44,443 nt of DNA from Escherichia phage mckay: sequence record NC_073073.1. The stretch is one strand, 5' to 3'. Shown piece by piece: positions 8,642-44,443 of the stretch; the stretch's first letter is position 1, and each line of letters starts with the position of its first letter. The position numbers and the translations under genes are program-made. The notes below the pieces were generated by a model that was not told the DNA's origin, searched no databases, and saw only the letters and a program-made list of their open reading frames with translations.

Positions 8642-9273
8642 TAATCTGGTCATTGTTTGACGGCAGCGGCTTGATGATTGAGCGTGCTGCCGAGATGGGG
8701 CATAAGTGCTACTGTTTTAACTACTCCGAAGCCGATCACGGGTCGTACCTTGACTACCGGATTTATGGTCGCGGAATCCGGTATCGCAATGAGTTTATCG
8801 ATCTGGACTTTGTAGACCGTGCGATGAATGGCGATTTCGGTACGCCGGATATCATCTATGCGTTCCCTCCGTGTACGGATCTGGCAGTTAGCGGCGCGCC
8901 AGCTTTCCCGCGCAAGCGTGCAAAAGACCCCGCCTTTCAGCTTAAGGCGGTGCGCACCGCGAAGATCGCCGCTTACCTGGGTGACTTCTTCGAAGTGCCA
9001 TATATGATTGAGAATCCGCGCAGTGTGCTTTCCACCCAGTGGCGTAAGCCGGACCACTCATTCGACCCGTGGGAGTATGGGGGATATCTGCCGGAGGATG
9101 ACGTACACCCGCTCTTCCCGGAATACATCAACGCCCGCGATTCATATCCGAAGCTGACCTGCTTATGGACCGGCAACGGCTTCCGTATGCCAGAGAAGAA
9201 ACCTGTTTTCGTTGAAAAGGGTACTCTAAGCAGTATAGTCGCCTCGGAGGCAAATCAGCCCGCACAAAATTAA
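8638..9273 (+). CDS. Compact cytosine-C5 methyltransferase-like protein (211 aa)
   Basis: SLFDGSG (motif I-like), FPPCTDLAVSG (PC motif IV-like) and MIENPRS (ENV motif VI-like), but too short to hold a normal target-recognition domain; start overlaps the helicase stop. Confidence 0.45.
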   Translation: MIIWSLFDGSGLMIERAAEMGHKCYCFNYSEADHGSYLDYRIYGRGIRYRNEFIDLDFVDRAMNGDFGTPDIIYAFPPCTDLAVSGAPAFPRKRAKDPAFQLKAVRTAKIAAYLGDFFEVPYMIENPRSVLSTQWRKPDHSFDPWEYGGYLPEDDVHPLFPEYINARDSYPKLTCLWTGNGFRMPEKKPVFVEKGTLSSIVASEANQPAQN

Positions 9274-9653: not shown

Positions 9654-9685
9654 TTGGTTGCATAATCATATTGGTTGCATTATAT
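9654..9685 (+). promoter_or_regulatory. Tandem TTGGTTGCA motifs forming a sigma70-like promoter (TTGCAT-17-TATATT)
   Basis: TTGGTTGCA at 9654-9662 and 9671-9679; the first supplies TTGCAT, 17 bp later TATATT (9680-9685), upstream of the gene at 9734. Confidence 0.4.
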
Positions 9686-11118: not shown

Positions 11119-11585
11119 AATTACTGATTTGCGATTTGGATGGCGTTATTAACGGTTCAAGCGATGCGCGTGCCGACCTGGTGCCGGGGATAAAAACGAA
11201 ATCAACCTTTTGGGCAAAGTGGCACAAAGCGCACGTCCGCGAAGATCTGAACATGGATATGCTGCCGCTGCTGCGCATGTACAAAGAGCAAGGCTTCGAG
11301 ATCGCGTATCTGACCAACCGGCAGCGCGAATGTTGGGACACCACCGCCGAGCAATTGGAGGTCTTCCCCGTAGGTCGATTGTTCATGCGCCACATGCTGG
11401 ACGACACCCCGCCGCCAGAGTTTAAGGCGTGCGCCGTTTTCAAAATGGTCTGCTATGCGGACGTGTCGGAACTGGTCATCATTGAAGACTGTCCGAAGAA
11501 CATCGCGGCAATTCGTCGGGCGTGTGGTGATTTGGTCCCGAAAATTTACGCAATAAACGTTGCAAAATTCACTTGCAACCAATAG
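11115..11585 (+). CDS. HAD-superfamily phosphatase-like protein
   Basis: N-terminal MKLLICDLDGVI is the HAD motif I (DxD) signature. Confidence 0.5.
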   Translation: MKLLICDLDGVINGSSDARADLVPGIKTKSTFWAKWHKAHVREDLNMDMLPLLRMYKEQGFEIAYLTNRQRECWDTTAEQLEVFPVGRLFMRHMLDDTPPPEFKACAVFKMVCYADVSELVIIEDCPKNIAAIRRACGDLVPKIYAINVAKFTCNQ

Positions 11586-24314: not shown

Positions 24315-24487
24315 TATTCAGTCTCAGACGAGGGGGGCCATTGACCCCCGTCTAGTCTGAAAGACTGGGGTGCTGTCCCGCTGTCCCGATCGGCTGAAAA
24401 CCGCGGCAGCACTGGCGGGGACGGGGTGCTGTCCCGTTTTGTCCCGCCCCTTGTTTGTCCCGCTTTCTGTCCCGCTTACTTTATGCA
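24315..24487. repeat. Copy A of a ~175-bp noncoding element (imperfect hairpin plus TGTCCCGC iterons)
   Basis: ttattcagtctcagacgaggggggccaTtgacccccgtctagtctgaaagactggg and ggtgctgtcccgTtttgtcccgccccttgtttgtcccgctttCtgtcccgcttaCtttatgca recur nearly identically at 40963-41136. Confidence 0.7.
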
Positions 24488-24637
24488 ATAAAACTGCATA
24501 GGTATGCACATTTACAGGGCGTGACAAAACGGGACGTCCCGCCTGTCCCGCTTTGAGTTTATGCAATGAAAGTGATTAGATATGCGGTTTTACAGAGGCG
24601 GGACAAAACGGGACGTCCCGCCTGTCCCGCTTCATTA
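24480..24637. repeat. Two tandem ~79-bp direct repeats, each ending in the 12-bp palindrome CGGGACGTCCCG plus CCTGTCCCGCTT
   Basis: Palindrome at 24530-24541 and 24609-24620; each unit begins with tttatgcaat(a/g)aaa and contains ttacag(g/a)g. Confidence 0.65.
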
Positions 24638-24958
24638 TGCGGGGTTCTGCTGCGCCATCTCATCAAGCGCGATTCGTTCCATTAGCTTGATATCTTTAAA
24701 CGCGCGCTGCTCGTTTTCGATACCGTGCATCTTAAATAACCACTCCAGCACGCCGTAGTCGATGCCGTATGCGCCACCAAATCCGGTGCGCCATTGCGTG
24801 GAGCAATCTGTGAAGACTGCGACTACCTTCGCGTTGTCGGGCCATAGCGCAACAGGTGGACAAACATCTTCGGGGGCCGCACCCCATAAACTTGCGGCTA
24901 AATCTTCGGAGGGTGGCGGCGGGCCATAAAAGCGTCGCGCCGCCTCAATTAGTTTTTT
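24635..24958 (-). CDS. gpT-like extension reached by programmed -1 frameshift from the chaperone gene (G-T fusion)
   Basis: Slippery heptamer A_AAA_AAC (+ strand gtttttt, 24952-24958) lies just before the chaperone stop; the -1 frame is then open for ~105 codons to TAA at 24635-24637 and has no start codon of its own. Confidence 0.6.
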   Translation of the reverse strand, partial: KKLIEAARRFYGPPPPSEDLAASLWGAAPEDVCPPVALWPDNAKVVAVFTDCSTQWRTGFGGAYGIDYGVLEWLFKMHGIENEQRAFKDIKLMERIALDEMAQQNPA

Positions 24959-25311
24959 TCACGCAATCCCATCAGTTCGAGATAGTACGACGTGTGGAAC
25001 ACACCGAACGCGCGTGGGTAGTTGACCACCAGGCGGCGGACGTTCTCCGAGTTAAATTCGTCTGGCAGATTCCAGCCTTCCGCGACGTGCATGATGGCCT
25101 CGACCATAACGTTAAAGCCGTCCGGGTCATTGTCGTCATATTCCGACAGCTTTCGTTCGGTGTCCTGCATGGTTTGCGAAAATTCGTCGATCGGGCGGTG
25201 GCGGACGGTAAAAGTCATCTTGCCTGGTTCGTTCTCACCTGGGCGCGGGATCTCAATCGGCAGCTTAAAGGTCGGCTTAGGGTCAAGTGTAAAGAGTGGT
25301 GCTTTAGCCAT
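24949..25311 (-). CDS. Tail assembly chaperone (lambda gpG-like)
   Basis: Start taken at ATG 25311 (MAKAPLFTL, GGAG RBS) rather than the ORF-track TTG at 25326; sits between the major tail protein and tape measure genes with a slippery site at its 3' end. Confidence 0.7.
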   Translation of the reverse strand: MAKAPLFTLDPKPTFKLPIEIPRPGENEPGKMTFTVRHRPIDEFSQTMQDTERKLSEYDDNDPDGFNVMVEAIMHVAEGWNLPDEFNSENVRRLVVNYPRAFGVFHTSYYLELMGLREKN

Positions 25312-40962: not shown

Positions 40963-41136
40963 TTATTCAGTCTCAGACGAGGGGGGCCACTGACCCCCGT
41001 CTAGTCTGAAAGACTGGGCTTTGTCCCGCCTGTCCCGCCCCTCTGGAAGCCGCGCCATCCGGGCGGGACATGGGGTGCTGTCCCGCTTTGTCCCGCCCCT
41101 TGTTTGTCCCGCTTTTTGTCCCGCTTAGTTTATGCA
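40963..41136. repeat. Copy B of the ~175-bp hairpin-plus-TGTCCCGC-iteron element, next to the primase gene
   Basis: Near-identical to 24315-24487; holds about six TGTCCCGC iterons at roughly 10-13 bp spacing plus an inverted GCGGGACA. Confidence 0.7.
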
Positions 41137-41284: not shown

Positions 41285-43549
41285 TTAATCTTTCAGGTCG
41301 TCATCGGTCGCCGAAAGCGTGATGGGTATACTCGTTTTGATGACGATATTCGACGACCCATAGATGGCCCCGGTGTGCGGATCTGTATAAAAACCAAGTA
41401 CGCCGCGCTCAACCATATCGTCGATTGCCTTCGTCGATGTGCCACCTTTTGCCAATCCCGCCTGGCGGACAATTGCCGATTTACTGAATCCGGTATGGTC
41501 CGGGTTTTCTTCCATCAGTTTTTCCAGCGCCGCATAAAGCACTTTCTCTTTTTCGTTGCGCGGTCCTGCGGCATTCTCCTCCTTAACTGCGGCCTTGCCC
41601 GCGGCCTTCGCCTGTTCGATGGCGAACGGTGCCAGGGCGACCGGTACGAGATACAGGGTCTCGTCGCGCGGCGTGGATGCGATCGGCTTGACGTCCCAAC
41701 CGGCAACGACGTCACCGAAGTCTGGCCCGGTGCTGGTGGACTGGTGTGCTTCGAACGCTTCGGACTTGCGGAGATCAACCTTAACCTTGCACTTGAGCAG
41801 GACGAATCCGCGCGGCGCTTGCTTGATGCCGTTACGTGCCTTTTCGTGATACAGGTTCAATTGGCCTGGCTGGTTGTCGTCAGGCTGTTCCAGGAAGAAC
41901 GCAGAATCGACAGCACCATGCAGCGCGCCGGACCCACGGGGAGATCTGCTGCCGTTTGCACCTTTCGCTGGGTGGTGGATGACGCCCGCACTGCCGCCTG
42001 TGTTTTCCGCAATGGCCTTCAGCGCTTTGACCACTTCGCCCATATCGCTGGCGTTGTTCTCGTCGAACGGTTTAGCATCGGCGGACCGCAACGCAACAGT
42101 CTGGTTGAGTGAGTCGAACGCCACCAGGCCAACCGGTTCGCCGTTGGCGGTGCGGTTGATAAAGCTGATAACTTCACGCAAGCCCGACTTGCTGGTGATA
42201 TCCCAGCCGCGTGATTGCAGGTCGATAATGTGCAGCTTGTCCAGGTCGTGCTCATATTTGATCTGCAGTGCTTCCTTACGCTGGTTGGAGGCTTCTCCGC
42301 CTTCCGCATCGAAATAGAAACAATGAGACTGGACGACCTTCGCACCGCCGAACGGAATACCCGCGGCAACCGCACCCATTTGACCCAGCACGTAGAACGA
42401 TTTACCGATGTTCGATTCGCCAGCCATATACCAGGTCGATTTAAAGTTAATCAGGCCTTCGATGATCGGGTCGTGTTTACTGAATAGTGCGACCGGTTCG
42501 TTATCCAGGTCAGCGTCGGTACATACGCCGTACTCGTCGCCGTCTCCGACCGCATCAACAATGTGGTCATATAAGGATTCGACTTCCTCGTCGTCCAGAC
42601 CTGGCAGGATGGCGGCGATTTGCTTACGCGACATGTTGTGCGGCTCGACGTTCAGGTGGTCCGGTATCCCGATAAGACGTAGCGCCAGGTGCTGGTGTCT
42701 GTTCAGTTCCGAGCAACACTCGTTGCCGGTATGCATACACTTGAAACGGATCTCGCCATCCTTGACCATGATAGCCGTCGACCCTTCGCCGCTGTGCAGA
42801 TGTTCGTTAGGACACGGCACTTCATAACCACGACCGGACGACAGCGGTTCGAATCCTGCCTGGAAGCACCAGTCCAGAATGCCGTCCGCCACGCCGTCAT
42901 CGCCCTGGGTCAGTTCGCGTCGTACTTCCTCTTTTTCCACTCCCAGCTTATCAGCCAGGCGAAGCAGACGACGGACGCGGGCACGTTTGCCGTAGTGACA
43001 CTTAACAACCGATTGCTGGTGAGGCAGGTACATAAGGCGGTTTGTGTCTTTCGTGCAATCATCGAAGTCCACATCTGACAGGCCCAGTTGGTGTAATAGT
43101 GCATACTGTACGCGGCCCAGGTCTTCCGCCGGTACAGGCTTATCGGTGAGCACCAGGAAACGGGCGCAACGCGTGCCGCCCTTCAGCGGGTGGCGGTCGC
43201 CGGTGGTGGTGTGAAATACATGTTCCAGTCCCGCGTCGATGAACGCCTTACGGCAGCGGCGCAGGGTGCGGGTGTCGGTGCGGTCAATATCAAAGAACAG
43301 GATCGAGCGGTCCACCGCACTGGTCTTGCGGCGTAAGCCGTCACTGGTATAAGCCACAATGCCATCGGCCTTACGCTTGCGGCGCGCATACTCCGCTTTA
43401 TCTTCCGTCTTGTTGATATGCACCGAGGATATTTCTTTCGCATCATTGATAAATTCGAAAAACTCTTCGGTAGTCATCCGGAAGTTTTCCGCCCTGGCTT
43501 TTTCGCCTTTTTTAGCGGGTCGTGTTACAGCGAATTTAATTAAGCTCAT
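41285..43549 (-). CDS. DNA primase-helicase (primase-polymerase-like N-terminus, RecA/DnaB-like ATPase, C-terminal wHTH-like)
   Basis: 754 aa; N-terminal ILFFDIDRTD (DxD) with CPNEHLH...C...C zinc-binding-like region; central Walker A GESNIGKS; adjacent to iteron-like repeats. Confidence 0.7.
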   Translation of the reverse strand: MSLIKFAVTRPAKKGEKARAENFRMTTEEFFEFINDAKEISSVHINKTEDKAEYARRKRKADGIVAYTSDGLRRKTSAVDRSILFFDIDRTDTRTLRRCRKAFIDAGLEHVFHTTTGDRHPLKGGTRCARFLVLTDKPVPAEDLGRVQYALLHQLGLSDVDFDDCTKDTNRLMYLPHQQSVVKCHYGKRARVRRLLRLADKLGVEKEEVRRELTQGDDGVADGILDWCFQAGFEPLSSGRGYEVPCPNEHLHSGEGSTAIMVKDGEIRFKCMHTGNECCSELNRHQHLALRLIGIPDHLNVEPHNMSRKQIAAILPGLDDEEVESLYDHIVDAVGDGDEYGVCTDADLDNEPVALFSKHDPIIEGLINFKSTWYMAGESNIGKSFYVLGQMGAVAAGIPFGGAKVVQSHCFYFDAEGGEASNQRKEALQIKYEHDLDKLHIIDLQSRGWDITSKSGLREVISFINRTANGEPVGLVAFDSLNQTVALRSADAKPFDENNASDMGEVVKALKAIAENTGGSAGVIHHPAKGANGSRSPRGSGALHGAVDSAFFLEQPDDNQPGQLNLYHEKARNGIKQAPRGFVLLKCKVKVDLRKSEAFEAHQSTSTGPDFGDVVAGWDVKPIASTPRDETLYLVPVALAPFAIEQAKAAGKAAVKEENAAGPRNEKEKVLYAALEKLMEENPDHTGFSKSAIVRQAGLAKGGTSTKAIDDMVERGVLGFYTDPHTGAIYGSSNIVIKTSIPITLSATDDDLKD

Positions 43550-43559
43550 TGCCGTTGCC

Positions 43560-43889
43560 TTACTTAGAAGTTTTATTATTGCGTACCCAGGAGCGCACTG
43601 TGCTCTGATTAATTCCGGTCAACTCGGCAATCATCGCCCAGGATTTGCCCTCGGCGCGCAAACGGATAACCTGTTTTTTGTATTCTTCCATTTCTTCATT
43701 GTGCTTTTGCAGCTTGCTTGCTGCCGTGCCGTTGAGCAATTCCAGCCTGGCGCGTAATTCTTTTTCGGTAAGTCGCAGACGTTCGATTTCAAATAGCACC
43801 GCACCCACGGCATCGGTATACGCCCAAGACCGGCTTGTCTCACTGCAAACAGTCTTAGTTAACATTTCGATTGCGTCGTCGATATTCAT
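43560..43889 (-). CDS. HTH DNA-binding protein, putative transcriptional regulator
   Basis: 109 aa; C-terminal HTH-like GKSWAMIAELTGINQSTVRSWVRNN; first gene of the leftward unit, immediately downstream of a palindrome. Confidence 0.55.
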   Translation of the reverse strand: MNIDDAIEMLTKTVCSETSRSWAYTDAVGAVLFEIERLRLTEKELRARLELLNGTAASKLQKHNEEMEEYKKQVIRLRAEGKSWAMIAELTGINQSTVRSWVRNNKTSK

Positions 43890-43902
43890 TTTTCTGTCTC
43901 CG

Positions 43903-43919
43903 GTTGGTTAATGACCAAC
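43903..43919. promoter_or_regulatory. Operator-like palindrome GTTGGT-taatg-ACCAAC beside the regulator gene start
   Basis: Perfect 6-bp inverted repeat with 5-bp spacer, ~14 nt upstream of the regulator ATG; a TTGACA-17-TAGTTT promoter-like pair lies just upstream on the - strand. Confidence 0.4.
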
Positions 43920-43962
43920 GAAACTACACCTAAAACCGCAGGGTGTCAACTTCTTTGGAATA

Positions 43963-44055
43963 TTGAAACGGGCGCGCACGCGTGTAATAATACTCCCGTC
44001 TCATTGTCTCTTATTGGTTAGCGCCGTCGCATTTTGCTTCGGCGCTTTTTTTTTT
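43963..44055 (+). ncRNA. Candidate small RNA (promoter TTGAAA-16-TAATAA, ~60 nt transcript, strong intrinsic terminator)
   Basis: -35 TTGAAA (43963-43968) and -10 TAATAA (43985-43990) flank the palindrome CACGCGTG; GCGCCG...CGGCGC hairpin (44021-44045) followed by ten T (44046-44055); no ORF in between. Confidence 0.3.
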
Positions 44056-44066
44056 GAAATTAGTTG

Positions 44067-44096
44067 TTGACACCCATCCTGCAACCAATCTATTAT
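44067..44096 (+). promoter_or_regulatory. Early rightward promoter (TTGACA-18-TATTAT)
   Basis: Consensus -35 TTGACA at 44067-44072, 18-bp spacer containing GCAACCAAT, -10 TATTAT at 44091-44096; ~200 nt upstream of the first + strand gene. Confidence 0.5.
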
Positions 44097-44292
44097 TCAC
44101 CCCGTCGACAGGATGCAGGACGCAAACTGGAGAGGGGCAACGCAGGGGCCGGATCGAAGTGTCAGGATTCCCAACCGTGATTATATAACCCGGTCCACTA
44201 CCCGAACGGGAGAACGCGCAACCGGGCAATATGTTAAGGCCACCGACGAAGTTAACTGCCGACACCTAAACTTAACCAATCGGAGATATACC

Positions 44293-44443
44293 ATGTTTGA
44301 GCAAATCGTAAACCTGATCACTCGCGGCGTAGTAGCACTGGAAACCATCGCTAAGCATTATGAAACCGTTGGCGCTGCCGTTGGTAAACAGGAAGATAAG
44401 AAGCCGTCTAAGGCGAAAAAAGAAGTCGTAGAAGATGACGACG
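44293..44443 (+). CDS. Acidic early protein, N-terminal part (continues at 1-288 across the window end)
   Basis: ATG 44293 with GGAGA RBS; open to the window end and in frame with 1-288 through the 13-bp overlap. Confidence 0.6.
   Translation, partial: MFEQIVNLITRGVVALETIAKHYETVGAAVGKQEDKKPSKAKKEVVEDDD

Follow-up and report, generated by a model that had tools for sequence, protein, structure and literature searches.

Temperate phages and prophages provide well-documented examples of regulatory RNAs. The c4 RNA of phages P1 and P7, like the related CI RNA of P4 and CA RNA of N15, acts by short imperfect complementarity over the ribosome-binding site (RBS) of the first downstream gene; these RNAs are cut from the leader of their target's own transcript (c4 by RNase P), are highly structured and serve temperate-phage immunity. 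The Hfq-type small RNAs (sRNAs) of prophages, among them DicF, IpeX and the AgvB/AsxR family, have an independent promoter, a conserved seed and a Rho-independent terminator, and pair with RBSs. P22 sar and lambda OOP, each ~70 nt long and made from a constitutive promoter, act on the mRNA of a neighbouring gene (sar on the ant RBS) as cis-antisense RNAs, transcribed from the opposite strand of their target with perfect complementarity, and in Stx phages the short product of PR'-tR' (StxS; 6S RNA in lambda) acts as an sRNA. To our knowledge, few regulatory RNAs are known in virulent coliphages, and gene regulation in the genus Dhillonvirus, whose members are widely isolated, used in defence-system screens (BASEL, SECphi) and considered for therapy, is essentially unstudied. 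Here we describe a candidate small-RNA gene at positions 43963–44055 of Escherichia phage mckay (NC_073073.1), a virulent E. coli siphovirus of this genus; the 44,443-nt stretch analysed, hereafter the window, is its complete or nearly complete genome. An earlier note on this DNA had proposed that these positions encode either a short regulatory RNA or a terminator insulating the early promoter.

The unit sits in the genome's single large divergent control region, between two divergent early promoters. We give roughly even odds to the combined proposal that it is a self-contained gene for a ~55-nt non-coding RNA that pairs with the initiation region of the first gene on either side. Taken separately, it is quite probable, on comparative sequence evidence, that selection maintains the unit as a genuine transcription unit for such an RNA, while pairing with those initiation regions as its mode of action is credible at somewhat less than even chance. 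Host sigma70 RNA polymerase would start at a strong extended −10 promoter, TTGAAA-17-TGTAATAAT, and transcription would begin near G43998 and end at an intrinsic terminator (hairpin 44020–44046 plus T10). The product would consist of a 22-nt unstructured 5' segment, a terminator hairpin and a U-tail, the usual layout of trans-acting base-pairing sRNAs. Its 5' segment would pair with the initiation region of the first gene of each divergent early operon (the rightward gene at 44294 and, in most members of the genus, a leftward gene for a 109-amino-acid (109-aa) helix-turn-helix (HTH) protein), covering the Shine-Dalgarno sequence and the conserved UUAACCAAY just upstream of it, and build-up of the RNA would lower the translation or stability of both messages.

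The candidate is closest in mode of action to c4 RNA and the Hfq-type prophage sRNAs, and sequence, processing and context all place it outside both families. Like c4, it would be a small phage RNA encoded upstream of, and co-directional with, the operon that it controls; unlike c4, the Dhillonvirus unit has its own promoter and terminator, an unstructured seed, a virulent phage as its carrier and a second, divergent proposed target. It has no C4 match in Rfam and lies upstream of the target operon's promoter, two features that set it apart from the c4/CI type. With the prophage sRNAs it shares a sigma70 promoter, a single-stranded seed, a U-tailed terminator and, as proposed, imperfect pairing with RBSs, whereas it has no sequence or Rfam similarity to them, belongs to the early control region of a virulent siphovirus and would target the phage's own early genes rather than those of the host. 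The likeness to sar and OOP, as short phage RNAs with their own promoter and terminator within a regulatory region, ends with the target: nothing conserved is encoded on the strand opposite 43963–44055, no opposite-strand target gene overlaps the unit as it would a cis-antisense RNA, and complementarity to the proposed targets is partial. The lambda PR'-tR' unit, too, combines a strong promoter, a terminator within tens of nucleotides and a co-directional operon; by contrast, the operon downstream of the Dhillonvirus unit has its own promoter and is early rather than late, and no Q-like antiterminator or pause site was identified. The unit is likely an unannotated phage sRNA gene, a new example of a familiar kind of regulator. 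If so, a regulator in the middle of the early control region would be encoded by all 153 Dhillonvirus-type records found, and blank or spurious annotations at its position in these 153 records would be corrected; because the proposed mechanism is familiar, the effect on general understanding would be modest.

Promoter, 5' segment and terminator of the candidate RNA

The −35 hexamer TTGAAA stands where the earlier note had placed it (43963–43968, plus strand), matches the consensus at five of six positions and is annotated as a consensus promoter in the GenBank record of HK578. For the −10, the note had proposed TAATAA after a 16-bp spacer. The same A/T-rich site is present, but AATAAT (43986–43991), 17 bp from the −35 and accompanied by TG, scores better, giving the extended −10 TGTAATAAT (43983–43991, plus strand). 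In a promoter scan TTGAAA-17-AATAAT with its TG reaches 10/12 against the sigma70 consensus; hexamers 16–18 bp apart and a TG one base 5' of the −10, as found here, are the marks of the extended −10 class. Only two further sites on either strand of the window (44.4 kb, 88.9 kb scanned) score at least 10/12, the main rightward promoter 100 bp downstream and a site at 9212, and among the three only the small-RNA promoter has the TG.

Between the hexamers lies a conserved, G+C-rich spacer (43969–43982, plus strand) holding, as noted earlier, the palindrome CACGCGTG (43977–43984). A regulatory role for this palindrome found no support: it is not conserved as a palindrome, being broken in HK578, in the clade of phage Ioannina (CGCGCGTG) and in one further relative (L013; CACACGTG), and we rejected it as an operator. 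A member of the Ioannina clade, L016, has a 2-bp deletion beside it.

We infer that the small RNA, ~55 nt long (43998–44053, plus strand), has its 5' end at G43998 and its 3' end in the T-run. The predicted +1 lies 7–8 nt past the −10, and the invariant block described below starts exactly there. Its first 22 nt, GUCUCAUUGUCUCUUAUUGGUU (43998–44019, plus strand), form a pyrimidine-rich 5' segment, the putative seed, with the lowest pairwise difference in the intergenic region. This segment is unpaired in both the minimum free energy and the centroid structure (28 nt 5' of the hairpin are unpaired) and contains two GUCUC anti-Shine-Dalgarno motifs (43998–44002 and 44006–44010) together with AUUGGUUA (44013–44020), GUCUC being complementary to the GGAGAC Shine-Dalgarno sequences that are common in this phage.

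The seed is followed by the hairpin AGCGCCG-uc-GCA-uuu-UGC-uu-CGGCGCU (44020–44046, plus strand), an interrupted stem of 10 pairs, 7 below and 3 above a 2x2 internal loop, capped by a 3-nt loop. Its folding free energy is −16.2 kcal/mol (z = −3.7), and none of 200 shuffled sequences folds as well. The records of CS16 and WF5505 label the hairpin a terminator; our terminator scan of the window failed to call it because of the internal loop. It leads into a T10 tract (44046–44055, plus strand), the terminator U-tail, which is one of two runs of at least seven T in the genome and ranges from 7 to 12 T across relatives. A G+C-rich stem-loop followed by a T tract, with the structure kept in relatives, identifies 44020–44055 as an intrinsic terminator; on the minus strand no T tract follows the hairpin. 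The earlier note was thus right about the strong hairpin and ten T after the promoter, and equally about its surroundings: 11 bp separate the end of the T-run, at 44055, from the −35 of the main promoter, the TTGACA at 44067, and no plausible open reading frame (ORF) lies in the predicted transcript (43998–44055), the only nearby plus-strand ORF (43963–44070) beginning within the −35 hexamer.

The genome's other long T-run, at 24913–24959 (plus strand), also follows a strong hairpin (−19.1 kcal/mol), inside the leftward late-gene block, and may terminate antisense transcription or act bidirectionally.

A search of the whole window against Rfam 15 at the gathering threshold gave no matches, and a search of 43800–44443 at E ≤ 10 gave weak terminator-driven matches only, with no C4 family among them. 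The best sub-threshold scores were 21 bits for RsaE (threshold 79) and 18 bits for ncS54 (threshold 43), and in these it was mostly the terminator that was aligned.

Conservation of the unit across Dhillonvirus

Full-length copies of the unit (107 bp) were found in 153 of 153 matching phage records, nearly all of them phages named for E. coli or Shigella; the 109-aa HTH gene has matches in equally many records, and the collection yielded no further matches. Among the feature rows listed for these 153 records there is no RNA feature at the position of the unit, which some records leave blank and others fill with spurious "hypothetical proteins". At 43400–44443 the window is 99.2% identical to Escherichia phage bob and 92–96% identical to HK578, SO-1, EP23 and SSL-2009a.

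An alignment of 24 relatives, representing 20 distinct versions of the unit, revealed a pattern of conservation that follows the predicted parts of the gene. The −35 hexamer is unchanged in 23 relatives (the remaining one has TTGAAC), and the extended −10 is invariant in all 24. The promoter from −35 to −10 has a mean pairwise difference of 0.037; the discriminator, the six bases between the −10 and the predicted start (43992–43997, plus strand), varies in six of six columns, at 0.27; and the 22-nt 5' segment falls to 0.024, as compared to 0.098 for the hairpin, 0.10 for the main promoter region and 0.17–0.30 for the non-coding flanks. In one clade the neighbouring 109-aa HTH protein is down to 77% identity, and in HK578 to 49%, with no change in the body of the RNA, and Opt212 has a 5-nt duplication that leaves the UUGUCUCUUAUUGGUUA core intact.

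All hairpin cells (100%) are paired across the relatives. In the most divergent group, the Ioannina clade (Ioannina, LM40P1 and L016), three hairpin pairs are changed, from G-C to U-A and from G-C to C-G, both compensatory double changes, and from A-U to G-U; the last of these pairs on the plus strand only, which fits the plus strand as the functional one. All three come from a single lineage and so count as one or a few events. Of the two readings in the earlier note, these comparisons favour the short regulatory RNA, because the promoter hexamers are invariant, the discriminator is free to vary, the sequence from +1 is nearly invariant and hairpin pairing is compensated. A plain insulator is disfavoured, since it would work without a strong, conserved promoter 30 nt before it and without an invariant unstructured segment of 22 nt; insulating and UP-element roles could nonetheless coexist with the RNA.

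In the next relatives Shemara, Smarc3 and phiEap-2 (helicase-primase identity 44–45%), the gene order is the same, the divergent region is shorter (144–212 bp) and contains no promoter-plus-terminator unit. Its lack in these three next-closest phages examined suggests that the unit is specific to Dhillonvirus. A metagenome scan with the loose pattern TTGAAACGGN{8,14}TGTAATAAT returned 120 matches, nearly all due to chance and two real, and a scan of IMG/VR with a 17-mer returned mostly genomes already known and ~5 chance matches.

Predicted pairing and competing explanations

Both proposed targets are initiation regions complementary to the seed. The first is that of the first rightward gene, UUAACCAAUCGGAGAUAUACCAUG (44272–44296, plus strand), with a 14-nt complementarity; a repeat search revealed that 44005–44020 is complementary to the RBS region 44272–44286 (UUAACCAAUCGGAGA), just ahead of the ATG at 44294. 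The second is that of the leftward 109-aa HTH gene, UUAACCAACCGGAGACAGAAAAAUG (43886–43911, minus strand), where the seed DNA has a direct-repeat copy: the target is the minus strand of 43897–43911 (UUAACCAACCGGAGA), with the ATG at 43889, and because 44005–44020 is a direct repeat of the DNA encoding this RBS, the RNA would be antisense to the leftward mRNA too. Complementarity is partial, at 12–13 of 14–16 nt. The motif TAACCAAYNGGAGA, allowing at most two mismatches, occurs three times in the genome, always within this 400-bp region: at both RBSs and, in antisense orientation, in the seed.

Predicted duplex energies are −18.7 to −20.0 kcal/mol for the rightward target and −20.3 to −22.5 kcal/mol for the leftward one, as compared to −9.3 ± 3.7 for all 30-nt windows. 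Cofolding of the whole RNA gave a free-energy gain of −12.6 with the rightward and −16.2 with the leftward target, and 1.5% of random coding windows reach −12.6. Shuffled seeds pair as well with the rightward target in 0 of 1000 cases and with the leftward target in 2 of 1000. Ranked among the 59 initiation regions of phage bob, the leftward target comes second and the rightward target fourth with a 30-nt seed or third with the 22-nt seed. The predicted pairing is kept in all 24 relatives (rightward −13.8 to −20.5, leftward −14.2 to −24.2), and the seed and rightward target are invariant in 21 of them. Of the hallmarks of a trans-acting base-pairing sRNA, the unit shows a conserved single-stranded seed 5' of a terminator that has a long U-tail and, by predicted energies, complementarity between seed and RBS.

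Several observations weigh against this interpretation. Compensatory co-variation between seed and target was not found among the 24 relatives. In the Ioannina clade both the seed and the target are changed, predicted pairing with the rightward target weakens to about −14 and the cognate combination has no advantage over non-cognate ones (−14.0 vs −14.4 and −16.3). A-to-G changes in the leftward target opposite a seed U would keep pairing, and constraint on the Shine-Dalgarno sequence explains them equally. In HK578 and CHD5UKE2 the leftward gene is a different one that lacks the motif, with the seed unchanged. By raw duplex energy several sites elsewhere in the genome (−25 to −28 in a scan with the 30-nt seed) beat the flanking RBSs, so the claim for these targets rests on their ranking among initiation regions and on the motif count. 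With wider windows, the RBS regions of bob genes 33, 52, 48 and 15 score like the rightward target; genes 33, 48 and 15 have ACCAAY just 5' of the Shine-Dalgarno sequence, so that a whole class of leaders, and not two genes, may be what the RNA recognises. The AACCAAT core of the shared motif is also part of a DNA motif, TGCAACCAAT, with 14 promoter-region copies, so that the likeness of the three copies could reflect DNA operators or an old duplication instead of RNA pairing. In the library of papers searched, nothing relevant was found on transcription or sRNAs of Dhillonvirus or HK578.

A broader version of the pairing proposal, which we regard as a speculative extension with a small chance of being right, makes the RNA a timing device. 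It would be a constitutive "anti-leader" sRNA whose seed, through GUCUC and AUUGGUU, reads a module of ACCAAY followed by a Shine-Dalgarno sequence, a leader module that would be common to both divergent early operons and to bob genes 14, 15, 33 and 48. As it accumulated, the RNA would turn off translation of operon-leading genes, in step with a DNA switch using the related TGCAACCAAT.

Control at the level of DNA is an unlikely explanation, though one to be taken seriously: the conserved body would be a protein-binding site and the short transcript a by-product, with three TGTCTCnnnTTGGTTA copies (core AACCAAT) serving as operators for a phage regulator such as the 109-aa HTH protein, at about +5 to +23 of both the leftward and the small promoter and, for the third, in the rightward leader. 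It draws on the AACCAAT core in TGCAACCAAT, whose 14 intergenic or promoter copies, one in the main promoter spacer, compare with ~0.09 expected, on the first leftward gene, which encodes a protein with an HTH_23 or sigma70 region 4-like domain, and on the failure to find co-variation between the seed and target RNAs. Yet none of the three copies has the TGC found in the abundant motif, the rightward one lies ~170 nt downstream of its promoter in most members, and the GGAGAC half of the leftward copy varies (CTGAGGGCA, CAGGAGACT, CCGGGGGCA) where the seed copy is unchanged, a freedom expected of a Shine-Dalgarno sequence and unexpected of an operator that the copies share; nor does the DNA reading account for the strong, conserved promoter, the covariation of the hairpin, its strand-specific G-U change or the T-run. 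Of similarly low probability is a purely architectural role, in which hairpin and T-run insulate the main promoter, the T-tract acts as its UP element, the RNA has no sequence-specific function and the upstream promoter is a bystander or does no more than compete for RNA polymerase with the leftward promoter at its back. T10 and the adjoining GAAATTAG (44056–44063) do lie at about −57 to −38 of the main promoter, and from this position only we suggest that they may form an UP-like element; an A/T-rich stretch takes this place ahead of the −35 in the distant relatives that lack the unit, and the −35 hexamers of the back-to-back leftward and small-RNA promoters are 13 bp apart. An insulating terminator and UP element may accordingly be part of the truth, but all upstream genes for ~31 kb are on the other strand, leaving the unit's own transcription as the only strong rightward transcription to insulate against, and neither the 22-nt segment, which at 0.024 is more conserved than the main promoter at 0.10, nor the complementarity to both RBSs is accounted for.

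Less probable still is that the unit is the terminated leader of a second rightward promoter under antitermination, in the style of lambda PR'-tR', with the short RNA as default product until a phage factor permits read-through and with a 5' segment that, on the read-through messages, could mask the first RBS in cis. The layout of constitutive promoter, short terminated RNA and co-directional operon is the expected one, and the possible operator TGCAACCAAT in the main promoter spacer would allow that promoter to be shut off later; against this, the downstream operon has its own near-consensus promoter 11 bp past the terminator and is early, the late structural genes running the opposite way, the first 20 transcribed bases hold no strong −10-like pause element, and no antiterminator gene was identified, although no search was aimed at one. 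We think it improbable that the unit is a transcription-activated replication origin or encodes a primer RNA beside the helicase-primase operon. It is near replication genes and its promoter is followed by an A/T tract, but a repeat search found no iterons or repeated boxes at the unit, placing iteron-like TGTCCCGC repeats instead at 41079–41126, in a non-coding region downstream of the helicase-primase gene. Pyrimidine-rich RNA is, moreover, unfavourable for a stable R-loop. The last alternative, that the conserved bases are the RBS and start of a small leftward gene, is very improbable. The minus strand does resemble the two genuine initiation regions, and an ATG-started ORF of 24 codons (44004–43930) is preceded there by TAACCAATAAGAGA; however, its AAGAGA and ATG are just 2 nt apart, there is no leftward promoter on its right, and the hairpin G-U change fits the plus strand only. 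We rejected the ORF on comparison, as a 1-nt indel four codons in shifts the frame in most relatives and a second indel ~30 nt on restores it in only some, so that the 24-codon peptide is not conserved.

Other features of the control region and genome

To the left of the control region lie ~31 kb of minus-strand genes, namely the 109-aa HTH gene (43560–43889), helicase-primase and then the lysis, packaging, head and tail genes, and to the right is a plus-strand early-gene block whose first ORF starts at 44294. The main rightward promoter, TTGACA-18-TATTAT (44067–44096, plus strand), matches the sigma70 consensus at 11 of 12 positions and has its TGCAACCAAT copy at 44080–44089. The candidate leftward promoter, TTGACA-17-TAGTTT (43921–43949, minus strand), was read from the sequence, and HK578 has an annotation at the corresponding site. 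The small-RNA unit is flanked by the arms of a perfect 10-bp inverted repeat, GGGTGTCAAC (43941–43950) and GTTGACACCC (44066–44075), each arm holding the −35 TTGACA of one of the divergent main promoters. The 109-aa gene is variously named Gam nuclease inhibitor, transposase and resolvase in GenBank. Its product contains a C-terminal HTH only (HTH_23, sigma70 region 4-like). The protein probably regulates transcription, and the names in the database seem to be errors carried from record to record.

A separate feature, a conserved structured RNA of ~150 nt with the invariant core GGAGAGGrGCAACGCAGGGGC...GAUCGwAGUrUCAGGAUUCCCAACCGUGA and no Rfam match, occupies the leader of the main promoter (about 44103–44262, plus strand). 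Compensatory changes were found at 13 of 35 predicted pairs in 10 sequences. It is missing from some Dhillonviruses (YD-2008.s, Sloth, rolling and the Ioannina clade), and occurs at 74–94% identity in intergenic gaps of unrelated siphophages: Drexlerviridae, Jilinvirus Arya, Sortsnevirus IME279, Serratia MQ-4 and Alux-21, unclassified Serratia and Escherichia phages included. In our sequence set the copies are at 1166–1367 of L170, 1129–1370 of L171, 1160–1421 of L172, 329–570 of L173, ~340–560 of L174, 305–576 of L175, 326–564 of L176 and 348–574 of L177. Each of these is co-oriented with its neighbours, most have a −10-like box upstream, and the genes downstream of them are not homologous to one another. 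An 18-mer from the core had 12 exact matches in 596 Gb of bacterial genomes, close to the estimated ~17 expected by chance, in unrelated metagenome-assembled genomes and one Streptomyces genome. This leader is a candidate for an undescribed structured phage non-coding RNA, possibly a mobile one, and may deserve more attention than the small-RNA unit itself.

Including its variants TGCAACCAAC and TGCACACCAAC, the 14 copies of TGCAACCAAT found by motif scan lie at 11574, 30239, 40773, 40804 and 44080 on the plus strand and at 9662, 9679, 11595, 14115, 30228, 30242, 37696, 40034 and 40776 on the minus strand. By the coordinates of the ORF list they are intergenic or in promoters, often as pairs or inverted pairs and often followed by boxes resembling TATAGT or TATGAT. 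The motif is likely an operator or promoter element of a phage regulator, perhaps for the switch from early to late expression. TTGGT-N5-6-ACCAA inverted repeats stand just 5' of the Shine-Dalgarno sequence in several operon-leading genes (43905–43919, minus strand, and the regions of 30234 and 40767). In two distant relatives, Shemara and phiEap-2, the equivalent operon likewise begins with a gene preceded by ACCAAC-N6-GGAGA, which suggests an old leader module.

The iteron-like array at 41079–41126, a candidate replication origin, consists of 3.8 tandem copies of TGTCCCGCTTTT and sits in the long non-coding stretch that directly follows the helicase-primase gene. The same GTCCCGC/GCGGGAC words are contained in a 79-bp unit that is repeated 2.1 times at 24467–24632.

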